From Candidatus Bathyarchaeota archaeon (lineage in GTDB: Archaea > Thermoproteota > Bathyarchaeia > Bathyarchaeales > Bathyarchaeaceae): DNA of 45,675 bases. Shown one piece after another: positions 3,775 to 38,118 of the stretch. The notes beneath the pieces are model-generated. The model saw only the letters and a list, made by a program, of their open reading frames with translations, did not search any database and had not been told where the DNA came from. A program made the position numbers and the translations under genes. Positions within the stretch are counted from its first letter, which is position 1, and every line of letters starts with the position of its first letter. The stretch is from positions 1,021,024 to 1,066,698 of the forward strand of contig CP070826.1 in NCBI GenBank assembly GCA_020344435.1, in the 5' to 3' direction.

Positions 3775-4375
3775 CCCTTCTCTCAGCGATCTTCATGGCA
3801 GAAATGGCGTCTTTGGACTCACTCCAAAGAGGGGTAGCTCGCGTGAAATTGCTTGTCCCAACTTCACTCACTGTCTCGAGGACTATTTCCTTTGGCAAAA
3901 CCGCATCCAGCAAATGCAGCAGATTCGTGGTATAAGAGGGAACCCCATCTCCTATCCTTACTACGCTAGCCACAGCGGGTGTTCTGTTTAGAATTCTCAG
4001 AGTAGCGCTCACTGTTTCTCCCAAACTTGAAAGCGCAACTGCTTCCAAAACCTTTCCGTCAGCCAAGATAGCCAATCCGAAGGTTTTGCCCGGATCTATC
4101 CCAATGATAACCCTGTCGTAACTCTGCTTTCCGTTAGCAATGCGAATAGCTTCTTCGACAACGGCTTCGGCACCCTTCTCATCTTTAAATAGAAGGACGT
4201 TGGGGTGCCTGATAAGGTCGCGCTCTTCCTCGGTTGTTATCACAGTTTTGATGTACAGAGGGATATGATCTTGGGGAGTTAGGCTCAGAAAGGCCTCTTT
4301 CCTCTCTTTGAGTTCCCTCACAAGTTCATAGTAGGCTCTCCCTGACACGGTTGCAAGTGCTATCTTCGCCTTCAT
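3737..4375 (-). CDS. predicted RNase H-fold (RuvC/YqgF-like) nuclease
   Basis: VIIGIDPGKTFGLAILADGKVLEAV is the first-strand acidic motif of RNase H-like nucleases. I prefer the ATG at 4375 (MKAKIALATV) over the track start at 4462, because 4462 would overlap the divergent radB start. The 3' end overlaps the Clp1 start. Confidence 0.5.
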   Translation of the reverse strand: MKAKIALATVSGRAYYELVRELKERKEAFLSLTPQDHIPLYIKTVITTEEERDLIRHPNVLLFKDEKGAEAVVEEAIRIANGKQSYDRVIIGIDPGKTFGLAILADGKVLEAVALSSLGETVSATLRILNRTPAVASVVRIGDGVPSYTTNLLHLLDAVLPKEIVLETVSEVGTSNFTRATPLWSESKDAISAMKIAERRGVTFQRRRGDET

Positions 4376-4462
4376 TGGAATCGCTTCTTCTGTGTCTAGT
4401 AGGAGGACAAAATTATTAACTTTAGGCTTAATATCCGCTTTGAAGTGATGTACTTGCAGCAC

Positions 4463-5170
4463 ATGATTTTAACAGGCTGCCCTTCGCTTGATAGGTTGCT
4501 CGGAGGAGGGCTTCCCAGTGATGGAATATCACTAGTTTATGGAGAAGCGGAAACTGGGAAGTCCTCCCTTGCGGTTCAGTGTGCTGTCAACTGTGCCAGA
4601 ACAGGACTGAAGTCTATATTCATCGACTCGGACGACACGTTCTCCCCAAGAAGGTTCACACAGATAGCCCACAAGGATTACGAAATGATTTCTCCCCTCA
4701 TAGTGCTAATCAAGCCGAGCACATTTCGAGACCAAATGCAAGCTCTGGATCATTTAGAAAAGTATATGACGAAAAGAGTTGGATTATTGGTTGTCGACAC
4801 AATCACATCTCTGTATCGACTCGAGCTTGGAGACGCAAAAGACACATTCGAGATAAACAGAGAATTGAATAGGCAAATTGCTCACTTGTCCGAAGTCTCC
4901 GCAAGCTGTAGGGTGGCAACTCTCATCACAAGTCAGGTTCGAAGCATCCTAACAAGAGAACAAGAGGAGGTGGAGCCAGTGGCTACCCGGGTTTTGAAGT
5001 TCTGGTCGAAGGTTGTGCTGAGTTTGAAGCCCACGGGTCAAACGCATATCATAAGGGCCAATCTAGAGAAGCATCCAACGAGGAAGAAGCACGTGAGCTG
5101 CTATCTTACTATCAATAGAACGGGCATCCGTGACTGTAAGGGCGATATCTTAACCAAAACAGGGGGATAG
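4463..5170 (+). CDS. radB: RadB-type RecA-family recombinase paralog
   Basis: MILTGCPSLDRLLGGGLPSDGISLVYGEAETGKSSLAV has an intact Walker A motif, and VGLLVVDTITSLYR is the Walker B motif. The size is about 235 aa. The start is placed at the ATG at 4463. Confidence 0.8.
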   Translation: MILTGCPSLDRLLGGGLPSDGISLVYGEAETGKSSLAVQCAVNCARTGLKSIFIDSDDTFSPRRFTQIAHKDYEMISPLIVLIKPSTFRDQMQALDHLEKYMTKRVGLLVVDTITSLYRLELGDAKDTFEINRELNRQIAHLSEVSASCRVATLITSQVRSILTREQEEVEPVATRVLKFWSKVVLSLKPTGQTHIIRANLEKHPTRKKHVSCYLTINRTGIRDCKGDILTKTGG

Positions 5171-15549: not shown

Positions 15550-16886
15550 GAGAAATCTCCAAAATGTTCCGTTTTGCTTTCTTTCCACGTCTTTATCTTG
15601 GGAATATACCATAGGGCAATAAGCCAATGATACATAAATAACAAGAACAATGGGAAAAGCAACACGCCTTTAAAACCTCTTTCTAAAACAATACGCAAAA
15701 ACGTAATAATCACCTGAAATAACCAGAGCCAAAACCAGAATGGAAAATAGAATGTGTAAAATGTTCCTCCCAGCAGATATAAGAAGGTTAAGATTAACCC
15801 ATAATAGAACAGAAACACACCAAAATGGCTCACTAGAAGATGCCAAATCCGGGGCTCCGTCCAGCTTCTAGCTAGGTGCTTTCTGAGAATCTGAAAATTG
15901 CCTCTTAGCCATCTTGCCCTTTGTTTGAAGAAGGAAGTCCACGTGACAGGTCTTTCGTCATAAACTCTGACATTGGATGCGAAACCTATCCGAAAGCCTT
16001 TCCTGAGCAATCTTAGGGTTAAGTCATAGTCTTCAACAAGATTTTTCTCGTCCCAATAGCCAGTTTCTTCTAGAGCGAAACGTTTTACTGCTTGTCCAGT
16101 GCCACCAAGCAAAGCGAAGAGTCCGAATCTGCTCAGAGAGTTTTCTACGAGATCAGTGAAAGCCAGCCATTCCAAATCCACTAGTCCTGAAAGAAGATTG
16201 CTATTGCTGTTTGAACTTACAATACGCGCTTGGACTGCGTCATATTTCTGGAAATAAGGAACAAGATTCTCCAGGAACCTCTTGTCAATCCTTGCATCAG
16301 CGTCAAAGATGACCACGATTTCACCTTCTGTGTGTCGGATCCCATGGTTTAGTGCTACTGGTTTGCCGTAGTCTCCCCTGAATTCTAGCACTCTTACTCT
16401 CTTGTCAGCAGTGGCTTTTGCAACTTCATATGTTCTGTCTGAACAATTATGGGCAACAACAACTGCTTCCCAAGCAGCATACGTTTGCTTTGACAAATCA
16501 CTCAAAAGATTGCTGATGACTTTCTCTTCGTCTCGAGCGGGAATAAGAATTGAAACCATTGGTGCATGCGGGTTGAACATCTTAAACTTCTCTGGTTTCC
16601 TGAAAGAAAACAGAAATCCGGTCAAAATGTAAAAGATCCACCCTAGACTTATGTATAATCCAATATAGGCAGGCAAATAACTCAGAATCGTTAGATCTAA
16701 ACGTATGAATGATAAGATAAGCACAAGGGGTTTTGCTTCTCCAAATGTCAGATAGAATATGAGAAAACTGACTAGAAACCAGGTGAGACCAAACAAATAA
16801 TCTTTAACAGTTCTCACGCCGAGTCTCGCGATTATGTTCTTGCCTCTGTCCTTGCGGCGAGTCGCATAAATTCGCTTCGATTTCAC
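15543..16886 (-). CDS. family-2 glycosyltransferase, membrane-embedded processive type
   Basis: VSILIPARDEEKVI, VVIFDADARID (DxD) and QRARWLRGNFQ (QxxRW) are flanked by multiple TM helices at both ends. Confidence 0.85.
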   Translation of the reverse strand: MKSKRIYATRRKDRGKNIIARLGVRTVKDYLFGLTWFLVSFLIFYLTFGEAKPLVLILSFIRLDLTILSYLPAYIGLYISLGWIFYILTGFLFSFRKPEKFKMFNPHAPMVSILIPARDEEKVISNLLSDLSKQTYAAWEAVVVAHNCSDRTYEVAKATADKRVRVLEFRGDYGKPVALNHGIRHTEGEIVVIFDADARIDKRFLENLVPYFQKYDAVQARIVSSNSNSNLLSGLVDLEWLAFTDLVENSLSRFGLFALLGGTGQAVKRFALEETGYWDEKNLVEDYDLTLRLLRKGFRIGFASNVRVYDERPVTWTSFFKQRARWLRGNFQILRKHLARSWTEPRIWHLLVSHFGVFLFYYGLILTFLYLLGGTFYTFYFPFWFWLWLFQVIITFLRIVLERGFKGVLLFPLFLLFMYHWLIALWYIPKIKTWKESKTEHFGDFSY

Positions 16887-17038
16887 ATAGCTCGCTCCAT
16901 CTAGAATTCTCGCTGTAAAGGCTGTTTAGAACCTTAGTTTTAAAAGACTTTCCTCAAACCACGACCGAGAGGTTCTAATGATTAGAAAAGCTAAGAGCTC
17001 TTGTGGAGGATGGGGATGCATATTCGATTAACCAGAGT

Positions 17039-18085
17039 CTAAGCGAAAATAGAGTCATTTTGCTTGTCTCTTGAATTACCATGTACAGCTTTCCAGGCTC
17101 TGGCTCTCCTCCATAGGATTCGCCCTCCAGTTATTTTTAGTGGGTAGGACAGAATCCACGCGACAGAATACAACCAGCCATAGTAATTATGAAAGGCCCA
17201 AACATCACCACCACTCATTGAAATCACGAATATAGCAACGACTCTGAAGATGTTGATAACATAGGTAATGGCAGCACCAACTACGAAATAGACTATTCTA
17301 TGCCTCCATGGAAAGGAAGTCCGCTTCATGAATAGTAGAATCGTAACCGTGTAGATTACAAGGCTTTCGACGCCCGCGCATGGCCAAGCTATTCCAAAAC
17401 TGGCAAATTCTGATGGTTTTTCTGAGTTCCAGACGCTCAAATGAGGCATAGAGCCATATTCGGGGTGTTCTGTAGAATATAGATGCGTTTGGTATCCCAT
17501 AAGATTCAGAACATTTGCTGCAAGCGTAGCAGTTGCAGGAACAAGAATTTGAAAAGGCGTGAACCATCCATATGGATACAGATCATCTATTGTAAATATC
17601 ACTCCGATGGCTACCAAGAAGAATAGAGGAATCGAGAAATCTACAAATCTATTTTTACCATGGGTCAGCAGAATTATTGAGGCAAAGAGAAAGGCGAAAA
17701 TGAGGTATTCTGTTGCAAGGGGCAATAGGTGTGCTAATGGAACGTTGTTTTGCATGGCGGCTTCCATGATTGTTATGTTCAGTCCGCAATAGTTGGCGGC
17801 AAATACGTATACCGTGGGAAGTAGAAGAGAGATAATTAAGGAGATGGTTCTTACTGGTTTCAGTGTACCCGTCTGTGCTTTTCGAGTTCTTTCCCAGGTC
17901 AGTATTGCTTCTAGCGTAACAAGCCATAAGAAGAAGAGCTGAAGTGTTCTGCCTTGGTACGTTGTTTGGAAGGATTCAGGATGTAAAAAATGTAGTACGA
18001 GAATTGGTGGAACGAATGAGAGGATGGGTAGAAGCGCTTCTAGGATGCTGATGTTTTCCTTAATTTTCTGTGCAATGTCTAGCAT
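17039..18085 (-). CDS. archaeosortase/exosortase-family transpeptidase
   Basis: The protein is polytopic. It carries FGIAWPCAGVESLVIY (catalytic Cys), YVINIFRVVAIFV (conserved Arg) and AFHNYYGW (His). I start it at the ATG at 18085 (MLDIAQKIK). The 73-aa extension in the track is basic, low-complexity and overlaps the priL fragment. Confidence 0.7.
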   Translation of the reverse strand: MLDIAQKIKENISILEALLPILSFVPPILVLHFLHPESFQTTYQGRTLQLFFLWLVTLEAILTWERTRKAQTGTLKPVRTISLIISLLLPTVYVFAANYCGLNITIMEAAMQNNVPLAHLLPLATEYLIFAFLFASIILLTHGKNRFVDFSIPLFFLVAIGVIFTIDDLYPYGWFTPFQILVPATATLAANVLNLMGYQTHLYSTEHPEYGSMPHLSVWNSEKPSEFASFGIAWPCAGVESLVIYTVTILLFMKRTSFPWRHRIVYFVVGAAITYVINIFRVVAIFVISMSGGDVWAFHNYYGWLYSVAWILSYPLKITGGRILWRRARAWKAVHGNSRDKQNDSIFA

Positions 18086-18233: not shown

Positions 18234-18587
18234 TTACCAATGATATTTCCTTCTGTCTTCATTCCTAAGTAGTTCATACGCGCGTTCTGCTTCAGCCAGG
18301 GCATATCTTCGTTTTAGGTAGGAATCAATTGTTGCAGCGGTCATCACGATGGCTATTGGAAAGGAGGATACTTCGATTTCGTCTTTTTCGTGCCGCTGGG
18401 TTATTGATCCGAAGAGTATGGCTTCTTCTATTCTTTCTTGGGCTTTTTCTAGGATATCTTGGTATTCTGTGTTTGTTAGATCTTTGAGGTTAATTTCCAG
18501 TCCTTGGATGTAGTTTGCAGCTTGGGAAGTAAAGGGATATCTAGCAAGGTTGTAGGGTGTGAGGACTGGGTTTGCCTCCGTCTTCAT
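18234..18587 (-). CDS. priL: DNA primase large subunit PriL, N-terminal fragment only (117 aa)
   Basis: ARYPFTSQAANYI...LKDL...AQERIEEAI...SFPIAIVMTAATIDSYLKRRYALAEAERAYELLRNED parallels the N-terminal helices of Sulfolobus PriL. It ends in TAA-TAG. No Fe-S C-terminal domain follows in any frame. The start overlaps the PCNA stop (ATGA). Confidence 0.6.
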   Translation of the reverse strand: MKTEANPVLTPYNLARYPFTSQAANYIQGLEINLKDLTNTEYQDILEKAQERIEEAILFGSITQRHEKDEIEVSSFPIAIVMTAATIDSYLKRRYALAEAERAYELLRNEDRRKYHW

Positions 18588-19339
18588 TCTACTTCTATAC
18601 GGGGGGCTAGGTAGTAAGTGAGTTTTCCTTCTTTGGGTTGTTGGAAGTCTATTCTTATAGGCATATCTGTTGCAAATTCTATCGTTGCGAGTTCAGAGGT
18701 GGCTGAGGCTGCTTTGACTATTTCTGTGAGATAAGATAGGCTGAAGGTTGCTTTGGATGGCTCTTGGGATTGGAGGTCTAGTAAAGCGTCGCTTCCCTTC
18801 TTGAGTTCGATGGTTGCTCCCATGAGGTCTCCTGTGGCGTTCAGAGTTAGTTTTTCTTTGTCTGCCTGTATGCGGACATGGTCGCTTACAAGGTTGGCGT
18901 CTTCTATTGCTTGGTGAAGCCCGTGGGTTGTTGTTTTCGCCTTTGTTTTGAAGGTTACTTTTGGCGTTGGGACTTCTTCTTCCATGGCTTCTAGGGTGGG
19001 CATGTTAAAGGTGCGAGTGTAGTTGCCTCTAATCGTCAATTTTAGTCTGTTCGTCTTCTCATCCAATACGAGTTCGATGGTCTCATCTTTTCCTGTTCTT
19101 CTAAGGAGCTTGAGGAGCTCGGAGATGTTAATGCAGAGTTTTACGGGTTGTGTGCATTTGTATTCGTCGAAGACAGTTTTCGGCCATTGGAAATCTATCA
19201 TGGCTACGCGGCTGGGGTCCATCGCCCTGAGGGTTATGGCTTCTGGCGTTATGCTGAAAGTTGCTTCGTCTATGAGTATAGAGATGGCTGTGAAGGTGTC
19301 TTTGAGGGATTTTGCATCTGCCATCTTGAGTTTGAACAT
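18584..19339 (-). CDS. pcn: DNA polymerase sliding clamp PCNA
   Basis: MFKLKMADAKSLKDTFTAISILIDEATFSITPEAITLRAMDPSRVAMIDF is a typical PCNA N-terminus. The size is 251 aa and the protein has a two-domain repeat. Confidence 0.92.
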   Translation of the reverse strand: MFKLKMADAKSLKDTFTAISILIDEATFSITPEAITLRAMDPSRVAMIDFQWPKTVFDEYKCTQPVKLCINISELLKLLRRTGKDETIELVLDEKTNRLKLTIRGNYTRTFNMPTLEAMEEEVPTPKVTFKTKAKTTTHGLHQAIEDANLVSDHVRIQADKEKLTLNATGDLMGATIELKKGSDALLDLQSQEPSKATFSLSYLTEIVKAASATSELATIEFATDMPIRIDFQQPKEGKLTYYLAPRIEVE

Positions 19340-32533: not shown

Positions 32534-32606
32534 GCCATTGTGACTTTTAGAGAAGGCGAATTCTACGGGAAAAAGCTTGCGTGCATACCTCTCTGTCTTC
32601 TGTCAT

Positions 32607-34919
32607 TCAGACGGGCTGAGGGTTCCGAACCATTTGCTTCTCGCCATGGATGAGATAGTCTTTCAGGCTTTTTTCGGTATGCCCGAGGGGGCTCAGGATG
32701 TTGACACCGGCGAGTATCAGCATATCAACATATTTCTTAGTATCGTACCGAGTCCCATCGTTGATTAGCTCAGCAGCCACCACACGATTGCTTGACCGTC
32801 TATTCTGGGCATCCGTTATTAGGTAACGGATTTTTTGTCCAGCTGAAACTTTCACACCCTCCTTGATCAGCTGCCTAGCAGCTATGGCCTGGAAAACATC
32901 GTGGACATATCTATCAGGATGCATCGAAAGCTGCTTCGCAATAATCAACTCCTGTTTGCTAACGTCCCCTCTCCTCAGCTTCTTCACGCCCTCTCCCAAA
33001 GCTTCAATCGCCTGCGGAATCTCATCCATGAACGCCGAATAGTTCCAAGCCTTGGCAAGAATCCTTATCATCGCCATCTGAGTTCTCTTAATGAACGGTG
33101 GAGTATCCCGCCTCACTGCCTCGATGCCTCTCACCTTAATCTTTCCCGATTCAAAAGTTCCGTAGTATCGATTCAGAACAGCAACCTCTGTATGCATTCT
33201 GGATGGCAGAAACACAATCCAACGGTATATGCCCTCAACGTTTAACTTGACGCCGATTTTCTTGGAGACCGCATCACATAGTTCAACGTATTTTTGTGGG
33301 GAAGCGCTTTTTTTCTTAAGCCATAATGAATCAACAATGCCGTGAACAACCTCAAAGCCCTTCTCCTCAGCCATACGTACAGTCTTAAGCAGAGCTTCTC
33401 TGGCAAAGGCGCAGACAGCGATGTGGGCATCAACCTTGCCAAAACAGGCATTTCTATAACCTAGATAGCCGAAACAAGTTACCAAGATCCACTTCAGAGC
33501 GTTCTGTCTGTGATTATACACTCTCCTCAACTCTGAATCTCGTGTCTTGTTTTTCATACGTTTGTAGATCGCCCGCTTCTTGAGAATAATCTTTAACGTT
33601 TTCGGAACTATACCCTCTCGCTTCTCACACATGTTGTAACCTAGCTCGGGCACCCTCAACCTCGAGTCTGAACAACACTTACAGAGCACGGTTTCAGCCG
33701 AGATGTTACGATCAGCCATCAAAGTTGGGTACATAGATGAAAAGTCGACTTCAGCCACGCCATCATGGACACCCAACCGGGGCTCATATATGAACCCGCC
33801 TCTATCCGCAACGAGCAGTTCCCAAGCTGACTTGAAGGTCTCAGGCTCTTTCTTCTTCCATGGGATAAGTACATCCTCTTTTGTGGCTTGATAGAGCTGC
33901 AGAGAAGACATTATTGTTCCGATCGACGCCCTTGCAGCCCTATGCAACGGAACCCTACAGGTCCTTGAAACTTCAATCAATCCATCCAGTCCACAAGCAG
34001 AATAGATGAATGTGTTCTTCTCGTCTATGTGGATTCGACCATAAAGCCTACACGTGGGTGCCTTGAAGTAGACTCTACCATACGAGAAGAATGTTACTCC
34101 CCGCCTCTTCTCAGCCTCAAGAGGGATATCTTCCCTGCCGAGAACGAGTCTGTTCAGTATCTCATTCACAAAAGCCCTATGAGCAAAGTAAGGGAGAAGG
34201 AATGAATCTCCGCCCCGAGTGAGAATGATGTCGGGGTCTTCTTTCTTGACATTTTCTACCATTTCAAGGATCTTGTCCTTTTCATCTCCTCCGTCAATTA
34301 TGTGCCTTTTTCCATCTGATTCTAGAGTGATGCTTTTGATTGTATCGTCGAATTTTGCTATGGGTCCATCAGCATCTATATCAGCGTGGATTGTCATCAA
34401 GCGAAGAGCAGGAGTTCTATAATCTACACTTTCCATAGAATCGGGCAAGCAGTAAGCAAGTTTTTCTCCTTCAATTTTGAAGGTGGTGTAAACTAGAGGG
34501 AAAATGTCTCTTTTGTAAAGGTATGTTTGAACGTTTGGAACGCCCACGTTGTGTAGTCTAAACTTCCTGTATCCTCCAAGCCTCAACAATTCTCTGGCGA
34601 AATAGGGTATCCTTCTACAATCTGAGATAGTGATTTCCAAGACCTTAGATTTCTTGTCCTCCATGAAATCAGCATGCTTCTCCACATAACGCCACTTGGC
34701 GACAGGTTCTCTGATCACAAAATGACTAGTCAGCTTCGACAAGTCAGTCATCTTGCCTGAAACATAAATCTTCGACTGGAATTTGTCAGAAAGTTTCACA
34801 CGGTCGCCATTCTCTGCTATGGCCCACACCGTCATTTCGCCGGAGCCAGAAGGATACAGATCGAGAAGCCAGCCTTTAAACGCCTTAAGGCTGGTGAAGC
34901 CACTTCTCCAATCTTTCAA
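32607..34919 (-). CDS. polB: family-B DNA polymerase, divergent (PolB2-like motif degeneracy)
   Basis: Motif A is VAEVDFSSMYPTLMA. VRGIEAVRRDTPPF and LNRYYG are also present. Motif B reads KWILVTCFGYLGY (consensus KxxxNSxYG). Motif C reads VVHGIVDSLW (consensus YxDTDS). Exo I reads IHADIDAD and Exo II reads GGDSFLLPYF (consensus NxxxFDxPY). Confidence 0.85.
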   Translation of the reverse strand: MKDWRSGFTSLKAFKGWLLDLYPSGSGEMTVWAIAENGDRVKLSDKFQSKIYVSGKMTDLSKLTSHFVIREPVAKWRYVEKHADFMEDKKSKVLEITISDCRRIPYFARELLRLGGYRKFRLHNVGVPNVQTYLYKRDIFPLVYTTFKIEGEKLAYCLPDSMESVDYRTPALRLMTIHADIDADGPIAKFDDTIKSITLESDGKRHIIDGGDEKDKILEMVENVKKEDPDIILTRGGDSFLLPYFAHRAFVNEILNRLVLGREDIPLEAEKRRGVTFFSYGRVYFKAPTCRLYGRIHIDEKNTFIYSACGLDGLIEVSRTCRVPLHRAARASIGTIMSSLQLYQATKEDVLIPWKKKEPETFKSAWELLVADRGGFIYEPRLGVHDGVAEVDFSSMYPTLMADRNISAETVLCKCCSDSRLRVPELGYNMCEKREGIVPKTLKIILKKRAIYKRMKNKTRDSELRRVYNHRQNALKWILVTCFGYLGYRNACFGKVDAHIAVCAFAREALLKTVRMAEEKGFEVVHGIVDSLWLKKKSASPQKYVELCDAVSKKIGVKLNVEGIYRWIVFLPSRMHTEVAVLNRYYGTFESGKIKVRGIEAVRRDTPPFIKRTQMAMIRILAKAWNYSAFMDEIPQAIEALGEGVKKLRRGDVSKQELIIAKQLSMHPDRYVHDVFQAIAARQLIKEGVKVSAGQKIRYLITDAQNRRSSNRVVAAELINDGTRYDTKKYVDMLILAGVNILSPLGHTEKSLKDYLIHGEKQMVRNPQPV

Positions 34920-35154
34920 TTCTCTCGCTGATCTCCATGATTTCTTTCTCTTGATGGAGCAGAATAGATATCAGCATAGCTTCGAGGAGAACCGGCCTAG
35001 TTGCCATGCTCCCTGCTGAAGCGAAATTTCTGCAAGCATTAACCATCCTATTGAAGGCCTCAGCATCCTTGGCTCTTAACGCTTTTCGGAAACCCTTCCA
35101 TTTGTCAATCTCACTCTCCAATGCTTGACGATACGAAGGAACAGTCCTGCCCAT
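34885..35154 (-). CDS. hypothetical 89-aa helical protein
   Basis: It sits between the RecA-like gene (4-nt gap) and polB (35-nt overlap) on the same strand and has balanced composition. Confidence 0.55.
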   Translation of the reverse strand: MGRTVPSYRQALESEIDKWKGFRKALRAKDAEAFNRMVNACRNFASAGSMATRPVLLEAMLISILLHQEKEIMEISERIERLEKWLHQP

Positions 35155-35158
35155 TCAG

Positions 35159-35866
35159 CTAATCCTCCATAAACATGTCCATTGTAACCGCATTCGAAAG
35201 AACATCGATTGAAAAAGATTTGATGTTCTGATGCTCCTCCAAAGTGAATCTGAGATCTCTTGTAGATTCCTTGAATCTCATCACAGCACCTGCTCTTCCG
35301 AACAAAATCGATTCTAGAAAGAAGCTTCTGCTAGAATAAGGTCGAGTGAGATATGAAGCGACAACGACTGCTCGCCTTCTAGAAGCAACTTCCAAGAGAT
35401 GATGAATCATCTCAAGGAAGATGTTCCTGCCTTCTATTTCAGGCACATCACGATCGAGGAAAAGCCCAATTATATCCGAAACAACGACAAGTTTAGACCT
35501 GTACATCTTCAGGAAATTCTCCAATTTTTCAAAAATCAACTCTGCTAGCTGATATGCTGTGAAAGCCCTCGAAATCAAAATCTTCTCAAGGGTAGACCTT
35601 GGCTTTAAGCCGCTATCTTGAGCTATAACCGAAACCGCATATGGATCAAAAGTGTTCCCGCCATCAATGAAAACAGCTCTAGAGTTCAGCCCTCCTTTTC
35701 TAAAAGGCAATTGACACCGAACGCTCAGAAGAAATAACAGCAGAGTGCAAAGGTGACGCCCAGCTAAAACTACAAAGTCACCGCCTTGAAAACCTTGAAA
35801 GCCCTCATCTAGTTTCGGGATGCCCAGAGCTAAGACTCGGTTAGATTTTCCAGACAACGCAATCAC
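35159..35866 (-). CDS. RecA/RadB-like protein with a degenerate Walker A motif (predicted inactive ATPase)
   Basis: LGIPKLDEGFQGFQGGDFVVLAGRHLCTLLLFLLSV aligns with the RadB segment LDRLLGGGLP..GISLVYGEAETGKSSLAV, but the GxxxxGK(S/T) motif is gone. AVFIDGGNTFDPY and KLVVVSDIIGLF retain the fold landmarks. The start codon is GTG. Confidence 0.6.
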   Translation of the reverse strand: MIALSGKSNRVLALGIPKLDEGFQGFQGGDFVVLAGRHLCTLLLFLLSVRCQLPFRKGGLNSRAVFIDGGNTFDPYAVSVIAQDSGLKPRSTLEKILISRAFTAYQLAELIFEKLENFLKMYRSKLVVVSDIIGLFLDRDVPEIEGRNIFLEMIHHLLEVASRRRAVVVASYLTRPYSSRSFFLESILFGRAGAVMRFKESTRDLRFTLEEHQNIKSFSIDVLSNAVTMDMFMED

Positions 35867-36010
35867 GTGTGTAAAGGGATATGAGAATCGAGTTCACAAC
35901 TCATAAGGATTCAGTAGAAGACTATTCTATCCTCCTAGAGACTCGTAGATGAAAGTAAAACCGATATTCTATTCTATTTCCCAGTCCAAGGCTTTTATGA
36001 GGATGACTGC

Positions 36011-36952
36011 TTGACGCGATATCTGATTGGAGCGGGTGGATGGGCATATTTTCAAGTTCCTGGAGAGCGGTCTCTCGCAGCATACTCAAAGGCGTTCAAT
36101 TTCGTGGAGGTGAACTCAACTTTCTACGAGATATCCAGCCTCAGACTTGTGAAATCTTGGCGCAGCTCGGTTCCTCAAAACTTCGAGTTTGCAGTAAGGT
36201 GCAATAAAGCATTGACTCACCAACACAAGTTCCAGGCAACATCAGAAGCCTACGAAACTCTAAGACACATGATCATCATCTGCAAGAATCTGAAAGCCAA
36301 CATTCTACACCTGCAGACGCCCTCAACTTTCAGGGCAACAAAGGCTAATGCAGATCTCATGCGCAACTTCCTTTCTTCGACGGACTTGAAAGGTGTAAGA
36401 ATTGCCTTGGAGATGAGAGGTGCCAAGCAACCACTCAACTCGACTCTCATCAGGACTATGCAAGACCTCAGCATGATCCACTGCGTTGACCTCTCCAAAG
36501 ATGAGGAACCTGCCTACGAATCTGACATTATGTATTCACGACTCTTCGGAAGAGGCTCTCACAACATTTACCAGCCAACGGATGAAGACCTCGTTAGAAT
36601 CGACAGAAGAGCGTCCAAAGGAGATCACAAGACAGTGGCTGTCAGCTTCCACTTCGTCAGGATGTATAAGGATGCTGCCCGCTACAAAACATACAGGCAA
36701 ACTGGAAAATTTCCGATGATCACAGAATCTACAGGGCAAAGATCGCTTATTGAGGTTCTCCAGGAAGACGCCGAATTCCCGAGCAGCAGGAAAGAGTTGA
36801 TTCTGCATCAGGGATGGAAACTGATCGATCTGACTGAGGACAAGAGAGTCCACGCGTCATATCTGCTTCAGAAACTGCCTGAAAGAACCTACCGCAGCAT
36901 CAACGAGATAGCTCAATCACTCAACTTCACAAAAACCGCGCGAAATCTATAG
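36011..36952 (+). CDS. DUF72-family protein
   Basis: IGAGGWAYFQVPG...LAAYSKAFNFVEVNSTFYE...VKSWRSSVPQNFEFAVRCNKALTH is the DUF72 N-terminal signature. The start codon is TTG. Confidence 0.75.
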   Translation: MTRYLIGAGGWAYFQVPGERSLAAYSKAFNFVEVNSTFYEISSLRLVKSWRSSVPQNFEFAVRCNKALTHQHKFQATSEAYETLRHMIIICKNLKANILHLQTPSTFRATKANADLMRNFLSSTDLKGVRIALEMRGAKQPLNSTLIRTMQDLSMIHCVDLSKDEEPAYESDIMYSRLFGRGSHNIYQPTDEDLVRIDRRASKGDHKTVAVSFHFVRMYKDAARYKTYRQTGKFPMITESTGQRSLIEVLQEDAEFPSSRKELILHQGWKLIDLTEDKRVHASYLLQKLPERTYRSINEIAQSLNFTKTARNL

Positions 36953-36987: not shown

Positions 36988-38118
36988 CTATTTGATTTCT
37001 CGGTCAAGGGGCACGTATCCTCTGAGTCTTCGTAGGGCTTTCAGCTTTTCTCTACTGCCCATGCGCGCGTTTTCTATGGCATTCTGGAGGAAATGTATGG
37101 ATTCGTCCATTGCTTGGCGGTTCACTGGGTAGGGTACACCGTCTTTTCCTCCATAGGCGAAGCTGTATTTGACTGGATCCTTCCAGCTTGGTGCGTTGCC
37201 ATAGATTAGCTGTGAGATAAGAGCTAAGCCTCGGATGGTTGCTGGGCCTATGCCCGTTATGTTGAGGAGTTCTTCGTAGTTTCTGGGTTGGAATTCGTAG
37301 GCTTGTTTGATGGCTTTCCAGTTCAGGTTGCGTGGCATGTAGAGGGTGTCGACTACGTAATTCGTCGGGTTTATGCAGCGTACCCATTCTTGAAGGGACT
37401 TCTGATGTTTCGGCCGGATGGATTTGAGCATGCGTCTGATTTTTGCTGGTTCCTCTTTAGCTATATCCGTGGATGTTTTCTGGCATTGCAGGCTTTGTCT
37501 AGCGGTCATATCAAGGGCGATTTGACGTTTTGCGTCGCCTACGATGGCGTTGTGGGGCTCGACTAAGAAATCTCTGGCATTCTGCGAGCGCCAGTGGTAA
37601 CGGCGAGCCGTTCTGTCTTGTATGTTCATGCCTTGCTGGATTATTGCCCATTCTGCCTTTTCGGTTATGAGAATGACGTGGTGGTAGAGGGGGTAACCTG
37701 CTTGGACGGCTGTATTATCGACTTTAGCCGAGATTCTGCTAACATACCTCAGGCGGTGGGCTGTAGCGGTGGAGAGGTTGAGGTGTTGTGCTGCTTCAGT
37801 GATTTCTATGGGGGTTTGGCGCGAGAGTCTGCCTTTGCCGCCGCACACCGCGATTCCATGCTCAGCGGGTTCTGTGGCTTGTTTGAGGACGGCTGTTAGG
37901 ACTGTTGTCAATCCCGAGGAGTGCCAGTCGTAGCCCAGTGTGCATCCTAGGGCTTGGAACCAGTGAGGGTCTGAGAGGCGGGCAAGGAGTGTCTGTTGAG
38001 AGTACTCCTCGATGAAGACGGTGATTATTCGTCGGGCTAACCTTGTCATTCTTCTGGTTAGCCATTGAGGAGCTTTGCCGTAGTGTAGGGGAAGGGCTGC
38101 TGTTCCAGTTCTGGGCAT
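36988..38118 (-). CDS. DUF763-family protein
   Basis: TAALPLHYGKAPQWLTRRM...LARLSDPHWFQALGCTLGYDWHSSGLTTV matches the archaeal DUF763 signature. Confidence 0.7.
   Translation of the reverse strand: MPRTGTAALPLHYGKAPQWLTRRMTRLARRIITVFIEEYSQQTLLARLSDPHWFQALGCTLGYDWHSSGLTTVLTAVLKQATEPAEHGIAVCGGKGRLSRQTPIEITEAAQHLNLSTATAHRLRYVSRISAKVDNTAVQAGYPLYHHVILITEKAEWAIIQQGMNIQDRTARRYHWRSQNARDFLVEPHNAIVGDAKRQIALDMTARQSLQCQKTSTDIAKEEPAKIRRMLKSIRPKHQKSLQEWVRCINPTNYVVDTLYMPRNLNWKAIKQAYEFQPRNYEELLNITGIGPATIRGLALISQLIYGNAPSWKDPVKYSFAYGGKDGVPYPVNRQAMDESIHFLQNAIENARMGSREKLKALRRLRGYVPLDREIK

Follow-up and report, generated by a model that had tools for sequence, protein, structure and literature searches.

The genes described here very probably form an ordinary Bathyarchaeia copy of an operon already published from archaea, the PolB2 'mutasome' operon of group 1a (iRadA-PPB2-PolB2). 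They lie in a stretch of 45,675 nucleotides from a Candidatus Bathyarchaeota archaeon (assembly GCA_020344435.1, contig CP070826.1, positions 1,021,024 to 1,066,698 of the forward strand), called the window below, and positions are those of the window unless a genome is named. Three open reading frames (ORFs) stand in tandem on its minus strand: iRadA, an inactivated RadA-family protein of 235 aa with a GTG start (35159..35866), PPB2, an arCOG07300 protein of 89 aa with an ATG start and GGAGG 9 nt upstream (34885..35154), and PolB2, a family-B polymerase of 770 aa whose TTG start lies within the end of PPB2 (32607..34919). The ORF table reproduced exactly the coordinates, the 4-nt gap (35155-35158) and the 35-nt overlap (34885-34919) reported in an earlier sequence-only reading of this DNA. 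That reading knew of no described function for the trio, a view that has to be given up: the genes are the PolB2/PPB2(arCOG07300)/iRadA operon of PMC4104785 and PMC11791011, and close Bathyarchaeota relatives have been catalogued and modelled. The trio is already described and the window copy is an ordinary one, one more from an uncultivated lineage. What may be new is limited to a conserved promoter element that resembles the Sulfolobus DNA-damage response element (DDRE).

Makarova, Krupovic and Koonin (2014; PMC4104785) predicted, in many archaea as well as some bacteria, an operon of PolB2, a ~90-aa helical arCOG07300 protein and an inactivated RadA-family protein. Timinskas et al. (2025; PMC11791011) named the partners PPB2 and iRadA, catalogued the operon types and modelled a PolB2:iRadA:PPB2x3 pentamer. 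Their models single out an N-terminal 'MGRT' arm in PPB2, together with Arg3 and Arg9, and a loop in PolB2 that imitates the oligomerisation motif of RadA/Rad51 and has D(K/R) at its end; the same work describes clamp-binding motifs in iRadA or PolB2 and an enrichment of DUF72, SRAP and orc1/cdc6 genes nearby. One of the 40 complexes modelled there is the Bathyarchaeota trio UCF59052/3/4, whose pentamer has an AlphaFold ranking score of 0.885.

Each window protein was matched by blastp to its counterpart in this trio among the supplement sequences of PMC11791011: iRadA to UCF59052 (67% identity, E 4e-87), PPB2 to UCF59053 (75% identity, E 8e-51) and PolB2 to UCF59054 (69% identity, E 0.0, with the N-terminal MTDWKS...GWLLD included). 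Further significant matches, weaker than those to the Bathyarchaeota trio, are to members from Bathyarchaeum, Lokiarchaeota, Heimdallarchaeota, Thermoplasmatota and Stygiolobus (Sulfolobaceae). This homology to published members, together with the full set of family sequence hallmarks, the conserved gene order and the purifying selection described below, identifies the trio as the catalogued operon family. Its database relatives are named Candidatus Bathyarchaeia or Bathyarchaeota and are all labelled 'hypothetical protein'. The identification is useful for annotation, and it also corrects a reading of the locus as dead genes.

The iRadA protein is a RadA/Rad51 ATPase core without the N-terminal domain and without a polymerisation motif of its own. 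The RecA-fold peptides quoted earlier for this protein (LGIPKLDEGF, AVFIDGGNTFDP and KLVVVSDIIGLF), as well as GRHLCTLL, are all present in the translation, and the loss of the P-loop noted with them, which implied a dead ATPase, is borne out by alignment to P. furiosus RadA structures. In this alignment T41 falls on the T of GSGKT, Walker A GEFGSGKT has become LAGRHLCT (residues 34-41), with Lys replaced by Cys and the glycines gone, the catalytic IDTE has become IDGG (residues 67-70), and Walker B reads VVVSD; the canonical RadA/RadB signature (Walker A GxxxxGK(S/T), Walker B hhhhD) is thus not found in iRadA. A functional Walker A at a shifted site was ruled out in a 21-sequence alignment, where neither the window protein nor any of 20 relatives has GK[ST] at this position. 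Pfam Rad51 (PF08423) covers only residues 41-136 (E 1.2e-13). The AlphaFold model (predicted local distance difference test score, pLDDT, 84.5; tail 224-235 disordered) retrieved RAD51/RadA cores in a Foldseek search (template modelling score 0.76-0.81, E 1e-16). The disordered tail carries AVTMDMFM (residues 226-233), a PCNA-binding-like motif that is conserved in the alignment of relatives and identical to the catalogued PCNA motif of UCF59052.

An intact RadB had also been noted in the window, and the RadB-like protein found there (4445/4463-5170; 154 bits on TIGR02237, below the curated cut-off of 172) does have an intact Walker A. The proposal that iRadA is an extra, degenerate paralog of this RadB did not hold up, since iRadA shows low identity to it and to the RadA genes of the genome (E 0.003 to 7e-14), as against E 1e-36 to 1e-135 for its orthologues; on these values it is a distinct orthologous family that partners PolB2. 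A RecA/Rad51 core fold without the N-terminal helix-hairpin-helix domain is common to the archaeal RadB/RadA paralogs and iRadA; the window RadB (4445-5170) retains Walker A (GEAETGKS) and Walker B (LLVVD), whereas iRadA has lost both and is tied to PolB2 and PPB2. Outside the window, the same genome encodes two nearly identical full-length RadA genes of 321 aa that differ by few substitutions (C1:549581-549955 and C1:733674-734048), and a third RadA-like gene at ~107 kb. The genome assembly is a single contig of 1.18 Mb, yet its completeness estimate is only 63%.

The N-terminal arm of PPB2 reads MGRTVPSYR. G2, T4 and R9 are invariant in 31 sequences, and M1, G2, T4, V5, S7 and R9 are also reported invariant. 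The predicted structure consists of three helices (residues 8-25, 28-47 and 55-86) and a free arm (residues 1-7). Foldseek comparison of this monomer model with the PDB gave no significant match, and the published sigma-factor similarity was not reproduced. At the sequence level the protein is 50% identical to a Lokiarchaeota PPB2 and matches the Stygiolobus PPB2 with E 7e-4. The family is absent from the Pfam and NCBIfam copies scanned; all PPB2 database relatives carry the precomputed Pfam accession PF26485, which the scanned Pfam copy does not include, and the family seems to belong to a newer Pfam release under this accession.

PolB2 combines retained polymerase residues with a lost exonuclease. 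Motif A is intact (VDFSSMYP at 391), the motif B Lys is retained (ALKWILVTCFGY, 474), and motif C reads HGIVDS at 526 instead of YGDTDS, so that the first Asp of DxD is replaced by Ile (IVD); the published row of UCF59054 has HGIVDSLWL at the same position 526, in agreement with HGIVDSL in the window protein. Across PolB2 relatives, Asp of motif A, Lys of motif B and the second Asp of motif C do not vary. KKRY is changed to LNRY, ExoI DxE to HxD (a site that varies among relatives) and ExoII NxxxFD to GGDSFL, and the exonuclease catalytic residues are gone. The protein lacks the signature of replicative PolB1/PolB3 (YxDTD motif C, DxE/NxxxFD exonuclease). The PolB2-specific loop PETFKSAWELLVADRGG (residues 359-375; FKSA...DRGG, FxxA-like with a D(K/R) end) is invariant in 19 relatives, and the two other PolBs of the genome keep YGDTDS and have no FKSA...DRGG loop.

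The starts of iRadA and PolB2 appear genuine. A wrongly called PolB2 start as the source of the 35-nt overlap was considered and rejected, as there is no other ATG, GTG or TTG before the conserved GWLLDLYP strand; the overlapping TTG is kept in 11 relatives and agrees with the published N-terminus, and the iRadA GTG is kept in 11 close relatives. The conservation of both starts supports translational coupling within the operon. At the other end of PolB2, EKSLKDYL (residue 749) has the look of a PCNA-interacting peptide (PIP) box and was dismissed as not conserved. In the extreme C-terminus (32607-32660), close relatives have KQTxLxPxL, a QxxLxxxL PIP-like pattern, and the window protein has KQMVRNPQPV (Leu to Arg), so that only the iRadA tail keeps a clamp-binding-like motif in this operon.

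The conservation of the trio was assessed in 61 related genomes and in 80 species-level loci, the latter being the best 80 of a contig scan with the PPB2 alignment. All of these 80 are from Bathyarchaeia, and the check across classes was made by a phylum-level genome search instead. PPB2 is present in 28 of the 61 genomes, with an iRadA orthologue always adjoining where the contig allows and with PolB2 immediately downstream in ~25 of the 28. Of the 80 loci, 68 have iRadA immediately before PPB2, 72 have PolB2 immediately after it and 63 have both; most failures of the trio order are due to contig ends or split genes. The check proposed in the sequence-only reading, co-occurrence of homologues of the 89-aa and RecA-like proteins with PolB2, therefore came out in favor of a conserved trio. 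In the phylum-wide sample PPB2 was found in 39 of 301 genomes. All three genes have ratios of nonsynonymous to synonymous substitution rates (dN/dS) of 0.06-0.30, which points to purifying selection on functional genes and not to decaying paralogs; taken with the same gene order in relatives, these values argue that the arrangement is not due to chance.

Several loci depart from this layout. PPB2-PolB2 without iRadA within 4 kb was observed in 8 of the 80 loci (L077, L078, L080, L081, L087, L088, L090 and L098; PPB2 at ~4001-4240), which represent a Bathyarchaeia subclade where PPB2-PolB2 directly follows the topoisomerase VI genes; iRadA may be elsewhere in these genomes or lost. In G018 (contig C9) iRadA-PPB2 occupies 16390-17329 and PolB2 stands apart at 127515-129791, and in G060 iRadA-PPB2 is on C9, PolB2 on C50 and additional PPB2 copies are on C26. 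PolB2 is interrupted in G041:C78 (the same as L016/L102) and in G032:C54, by an in-frame TGA in one and by a split into two pieces in the other, which could reflect decay or assembly error. Bathyarchaeia-like pieces of the operon also occur in bins labelled bacterial, L098 (Candidatus Limnocylindrales) and P0108 (Zixiibacteriota); these are probably mis-binned contigs, not transfers.

Upstream of iRadA, the 144-bp divergent intergenic region (35867-36010) contains blocks that are invariant in 12 relatives: (C/T)ACTTTCA at ~-91, GAGTC and AAATCCTTATGA. The first belongs to a candidate damage-response element, ACTTTCA-N9-CTC, on the minus strand at 35938..35956, 72-90 nt before the iRadA start codon. 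The AAATCCTTATGA block (35901..35912, minus strand), ~40 nt before the start, is a probable TATA box, and in more distant relatives the GAACGTTTAT block is aligned to it. In the alignment of the 12 relatives the TT-A-TTTCA block is invariant, as are the AAT..TT.TGA columns at AAATCCTTATGA. Sense-strand copies of YAYTTTMA were found in 50 of 67 species-level upstream regions (background 0.047 per region), and ANTTTMR-N5-CTC was found in 28 (background 0.005); a variant with an N8-10 spacer occurs in 25, and one or other spacing in 41. As the regions are related in sequence, these counts are not independent of one another. Lineages of other Thermoproteota classes in which PPB2 is the first gene have CATTTTCA-N5-CTCTC 54-58 nt before PPB2. 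As the element precedes PPB2 where PPB2 comes first, it tracks the start of the operon rather than a particular gene.

The damage-response element of Sulfolobus has the consensus AATAGTTTCRGWDTACTCWS, with an ANTTTC core that is bound by Orc1-2 and required for induction (PMC6061795). The Sulfolobales DDRE and the element before the PolB2 operons of Bathyarchaeia and other Thermoproteota have the same bipartite ANTTTCR-N5-CTC layout. They differ in placement, the DDRE lying at -23 to -55 from the ATG and the window element ~50 nt upstream of the putative TATA box, and in the window's clade also in the spacer, which is 9 nt; the binding and induction data are from Sulfolobales. The genome of the window has 13 copies of the exact 10-mer against 8 expected, which is no enrichment, and no damage regulon is demonstrable there; a core-like sequence, CATTTTCAC, was seen before only one of the repair genes checked, an orc1/cdc6 gene, at -146. 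In the searchable literature the motif is discussed for Sulfolobales only. That the upstream element is the same cis-element as the Orc1-2 DDRE of Sulfolobales (AGTTTCR-N5-CTC) is a tentative proposal, and one that we consider doubtful. If they were one element, much of Thermoproteota, and possibly a wider group, would have inherited from its ancestor an Orc1-2-type damage regulon that includes the PolB2 mutasome among its core targets. Confirmation would mean that Orc1-2/DDRE, the only known circuit for DNA-damage regulation in archaea, is not limited to Sulfolobales, and damage regulons of uncultivated archaea could then be predicted with the help of this sequence.

By analogy with the studied members of the family, the operon likely functions in damage-tolerant DNA synthesis, that is, in extension from mismatches and lesions. 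The Dpo2 protein of S. islandicus is a robust polymerase without proofreading, which inserts poorly opposite lesions and efficiently extends mismatched or lesion-paired termini (PMC8764526). It is the only damage-induced polymerase of this organism; it improves survival at the price of mutations, and targeted mutagenesis is due to it alone (PMC7390963); the induction of dpo2 in Sulfolobus depends on Orc1-2 (PMC6061795). The damage-tolerance part of the damage-tolerance or recombination module suggested by the sequence-only reading is the accepted one, but its 'motif-degenerate' polymerase need not be inactive, given the activity of S. islandicus Dpo2, in which motif C is altered in a similar way.

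Following the published models, the window products would assemble as a complex of one PolB2, one iRadA and a trimer of PPB2, in which the MGRT arm of one PPB2 chain would insert between PolB2 and iRadA, and the FKSA-helix-DRGG loop of PolB2, which in the models touches PPB2 as well as iRadA, would dock on iRadA in the manner of neighbouring RadA/Rad51 subunits in a filament. The models point to iRadA and PPB2 as structural subunits, and the flexible C-terminal AVTMDMFM of iRadA would supply the tether of the complex to PCNA, which this genome encodes at 18584-19339 of the window. Catalysis would rely on Asp of motif A and on the one Asp left in motif C, with no proofreading. Like S. islandicus Dpo2, PolB2 is predicted to extend primers whose ends lie opposite a lesion or mismatch. 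A Y-family polymerase is encoded in the same genome, which makes a division of labor possible, with this enzyme as the likely inserter and PolB2 as the extender. Expression is probably damage-induced via the conserved ANTTTMR-N-CTC promoter element, and the transcript would be expected to start ~25 nt downstream of CCTTATGA.

A number of points weigh against this account. Formation of the complex is predicted from published AlphaFold-Multimer models of relatives; the biochemistry of the family comes only from Sulfolobales Dpo2, a much shorter and distant protein (33% identity over 203 residues); and the catalogued PCNA-motif score of UCF59052 is weak (-0.8). The sequencing runs that hold this stretch are sediment DNA metagenomes only, with no RNA runs among them. 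As for the promoter, the spacer in the window's clade is N9, not N5, and the own genome has no other promoter-placed copy of the bipartite pattern.

Two alternatives concern what the complex does. When PolB2 was thought to be inactivated, Makarova et al. (2014; PMC4104785) proposed a catalytically inert complex with a regulatory or scaffolding role, such as one in origin-related control or the restart of replication, and noted a linkage to arORC2 genes. The replacement of the first DxD Asp, of the KKRY lysines and of all exonuclease residues would fit such a role. However, substitutions of the same class do not keep the Dpo2 proteins of S. islandicus and S. solfataricus from being robust polymerases (PMC8764526), the invariant Asp of motif A, Lys of motif B and second Asp of motif C are what is expected of a working active site, and the two orc1/cdc6 genes of the genome (at 41.5 kb and 802 kb) are not adjacent to the operon; we therefore regard an inert complex as improbable. 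Slightly less probable again is that the main role of iRadA is to mediate recombination or to cap RadA filaments, as Rad51 paralogs do, with its PolB2 linkage reflecting recombination-associated synthesis and not translesion extension. The top structural matches of iRadA do include RAD51 and RAD51-paralog filament-capping complexes, the RadAs of the genome carry FITA/FIRA polymerisation motifs that resemble the PolB2 FKSA, so that the iRadA pocket might accept RadA, and a full RadA gene lies directly upstream of iRadA in two relatives (G025 and G055). Yet the published models score PolB2 very poorly with active RadA and highly with iRadA (PMC11791011), iRadA has neither the N-terminal domain nor a polymerisation motif of its own, and its presence tracks PPB2 and PolB2 rather than RadA, which is found in every genome.

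A third alternative, that the cassette is not core genome but a mobile element or defence island, such as a self-replicating element with its own PolB, draws on the patchy distribution given above (28 of 61 relatives and 39 of 301 phylum genomes) and on the horizontal transfers of PolB2 inferred in the literature (PMC11791011). We give it almost no weight: the locus does not stand out in GC content, no integrase, Cas1, terminal repeats or tRNA was noted there, and the neighbours are ordinary genes (an MFS transporter, DUF72 and DUF763), the DUF72 flank being common to many species. The polymerase itself is without proofreading and without protein-primed or casposon PolB features. Damage-tolerant synthesis by a PolB2-iRadA-PPB2 complex is thus the reading that we prefer.

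The operon is flanked upstream by a divergent DUF72 gene (36011..36952, plus strand; Pfam PF01904, E 1.3e-29). DUF72 is a TIM-barrel family related to UV-damage endonuclease and an enriched neighbour of PolB2 operons (PMC11791011). In agreement with this enrichment, an adjacent divergent DUF72 gene was found in ~17 of the 28 PPB2-carrying relatives and in 20 of the 80 species loci. The window DUF72 protein has a C-terminal extension of ~100 aa past the Pfam domain, with a weak DUF2795 match. It is followed by a convergent DUF763 gene (36988-38118), and many relatives have a second DUF72-like gene at this place. Downstream of the operon, a T5 tract (32570..32574, minus strand) lies 33 nt past the PolB2 stop codon and hints, weakly, at an archaeal terminator signal.

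Among known systems, the closest is the Bathyarchaeota operon UCF59052/3/4 (PMC11791011), which has the same gene order, PolB2 N-terminus, motif C (HGIVDSLWL at 526) and iRadA AVTMDMFM motif. It is from another species and has MGKT (Lys3) in PPB2 where the window protein has MGRT (Arg3); the window has a single divergent DUF72 gene upstream. The Dpo2 operon of S. islandicus and S. solfataricus consists of the same three families and provides the only experimentally studied members. It resembles the window operon in the replaced first DxD Asp (IID there, IVD here), the loss of exonuclease residues, the MGRT arm, the D(K/R) loop and the coexistence with a Y-family polymerase. Its gene order is PPB2-PolB2-iRadA (group 3a) as opposed to iRadA-PPB2-PolB2, and in Sulfolobales PolB2 is a shorter protein whose exonuclease domain has decayed further (33% identity over 203 aa; PPB2 E 7e-4). 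Polymerase activity and damage induction have been shown for Sulfolobus Dpo2 only. The E. coli Pol V mutasome (UmuD'2C-RecA-ATP) is not homologous, as its polymerase is of the Y-family, its active RecA is taken from the filament and UmuD' is unrelated to PPB2. The two are nevertheless alike in outline, each combining a damage-tolerance polymerase with one RecA-family subunit, a small oligomeric accessory protein and sliding-clamp binding.

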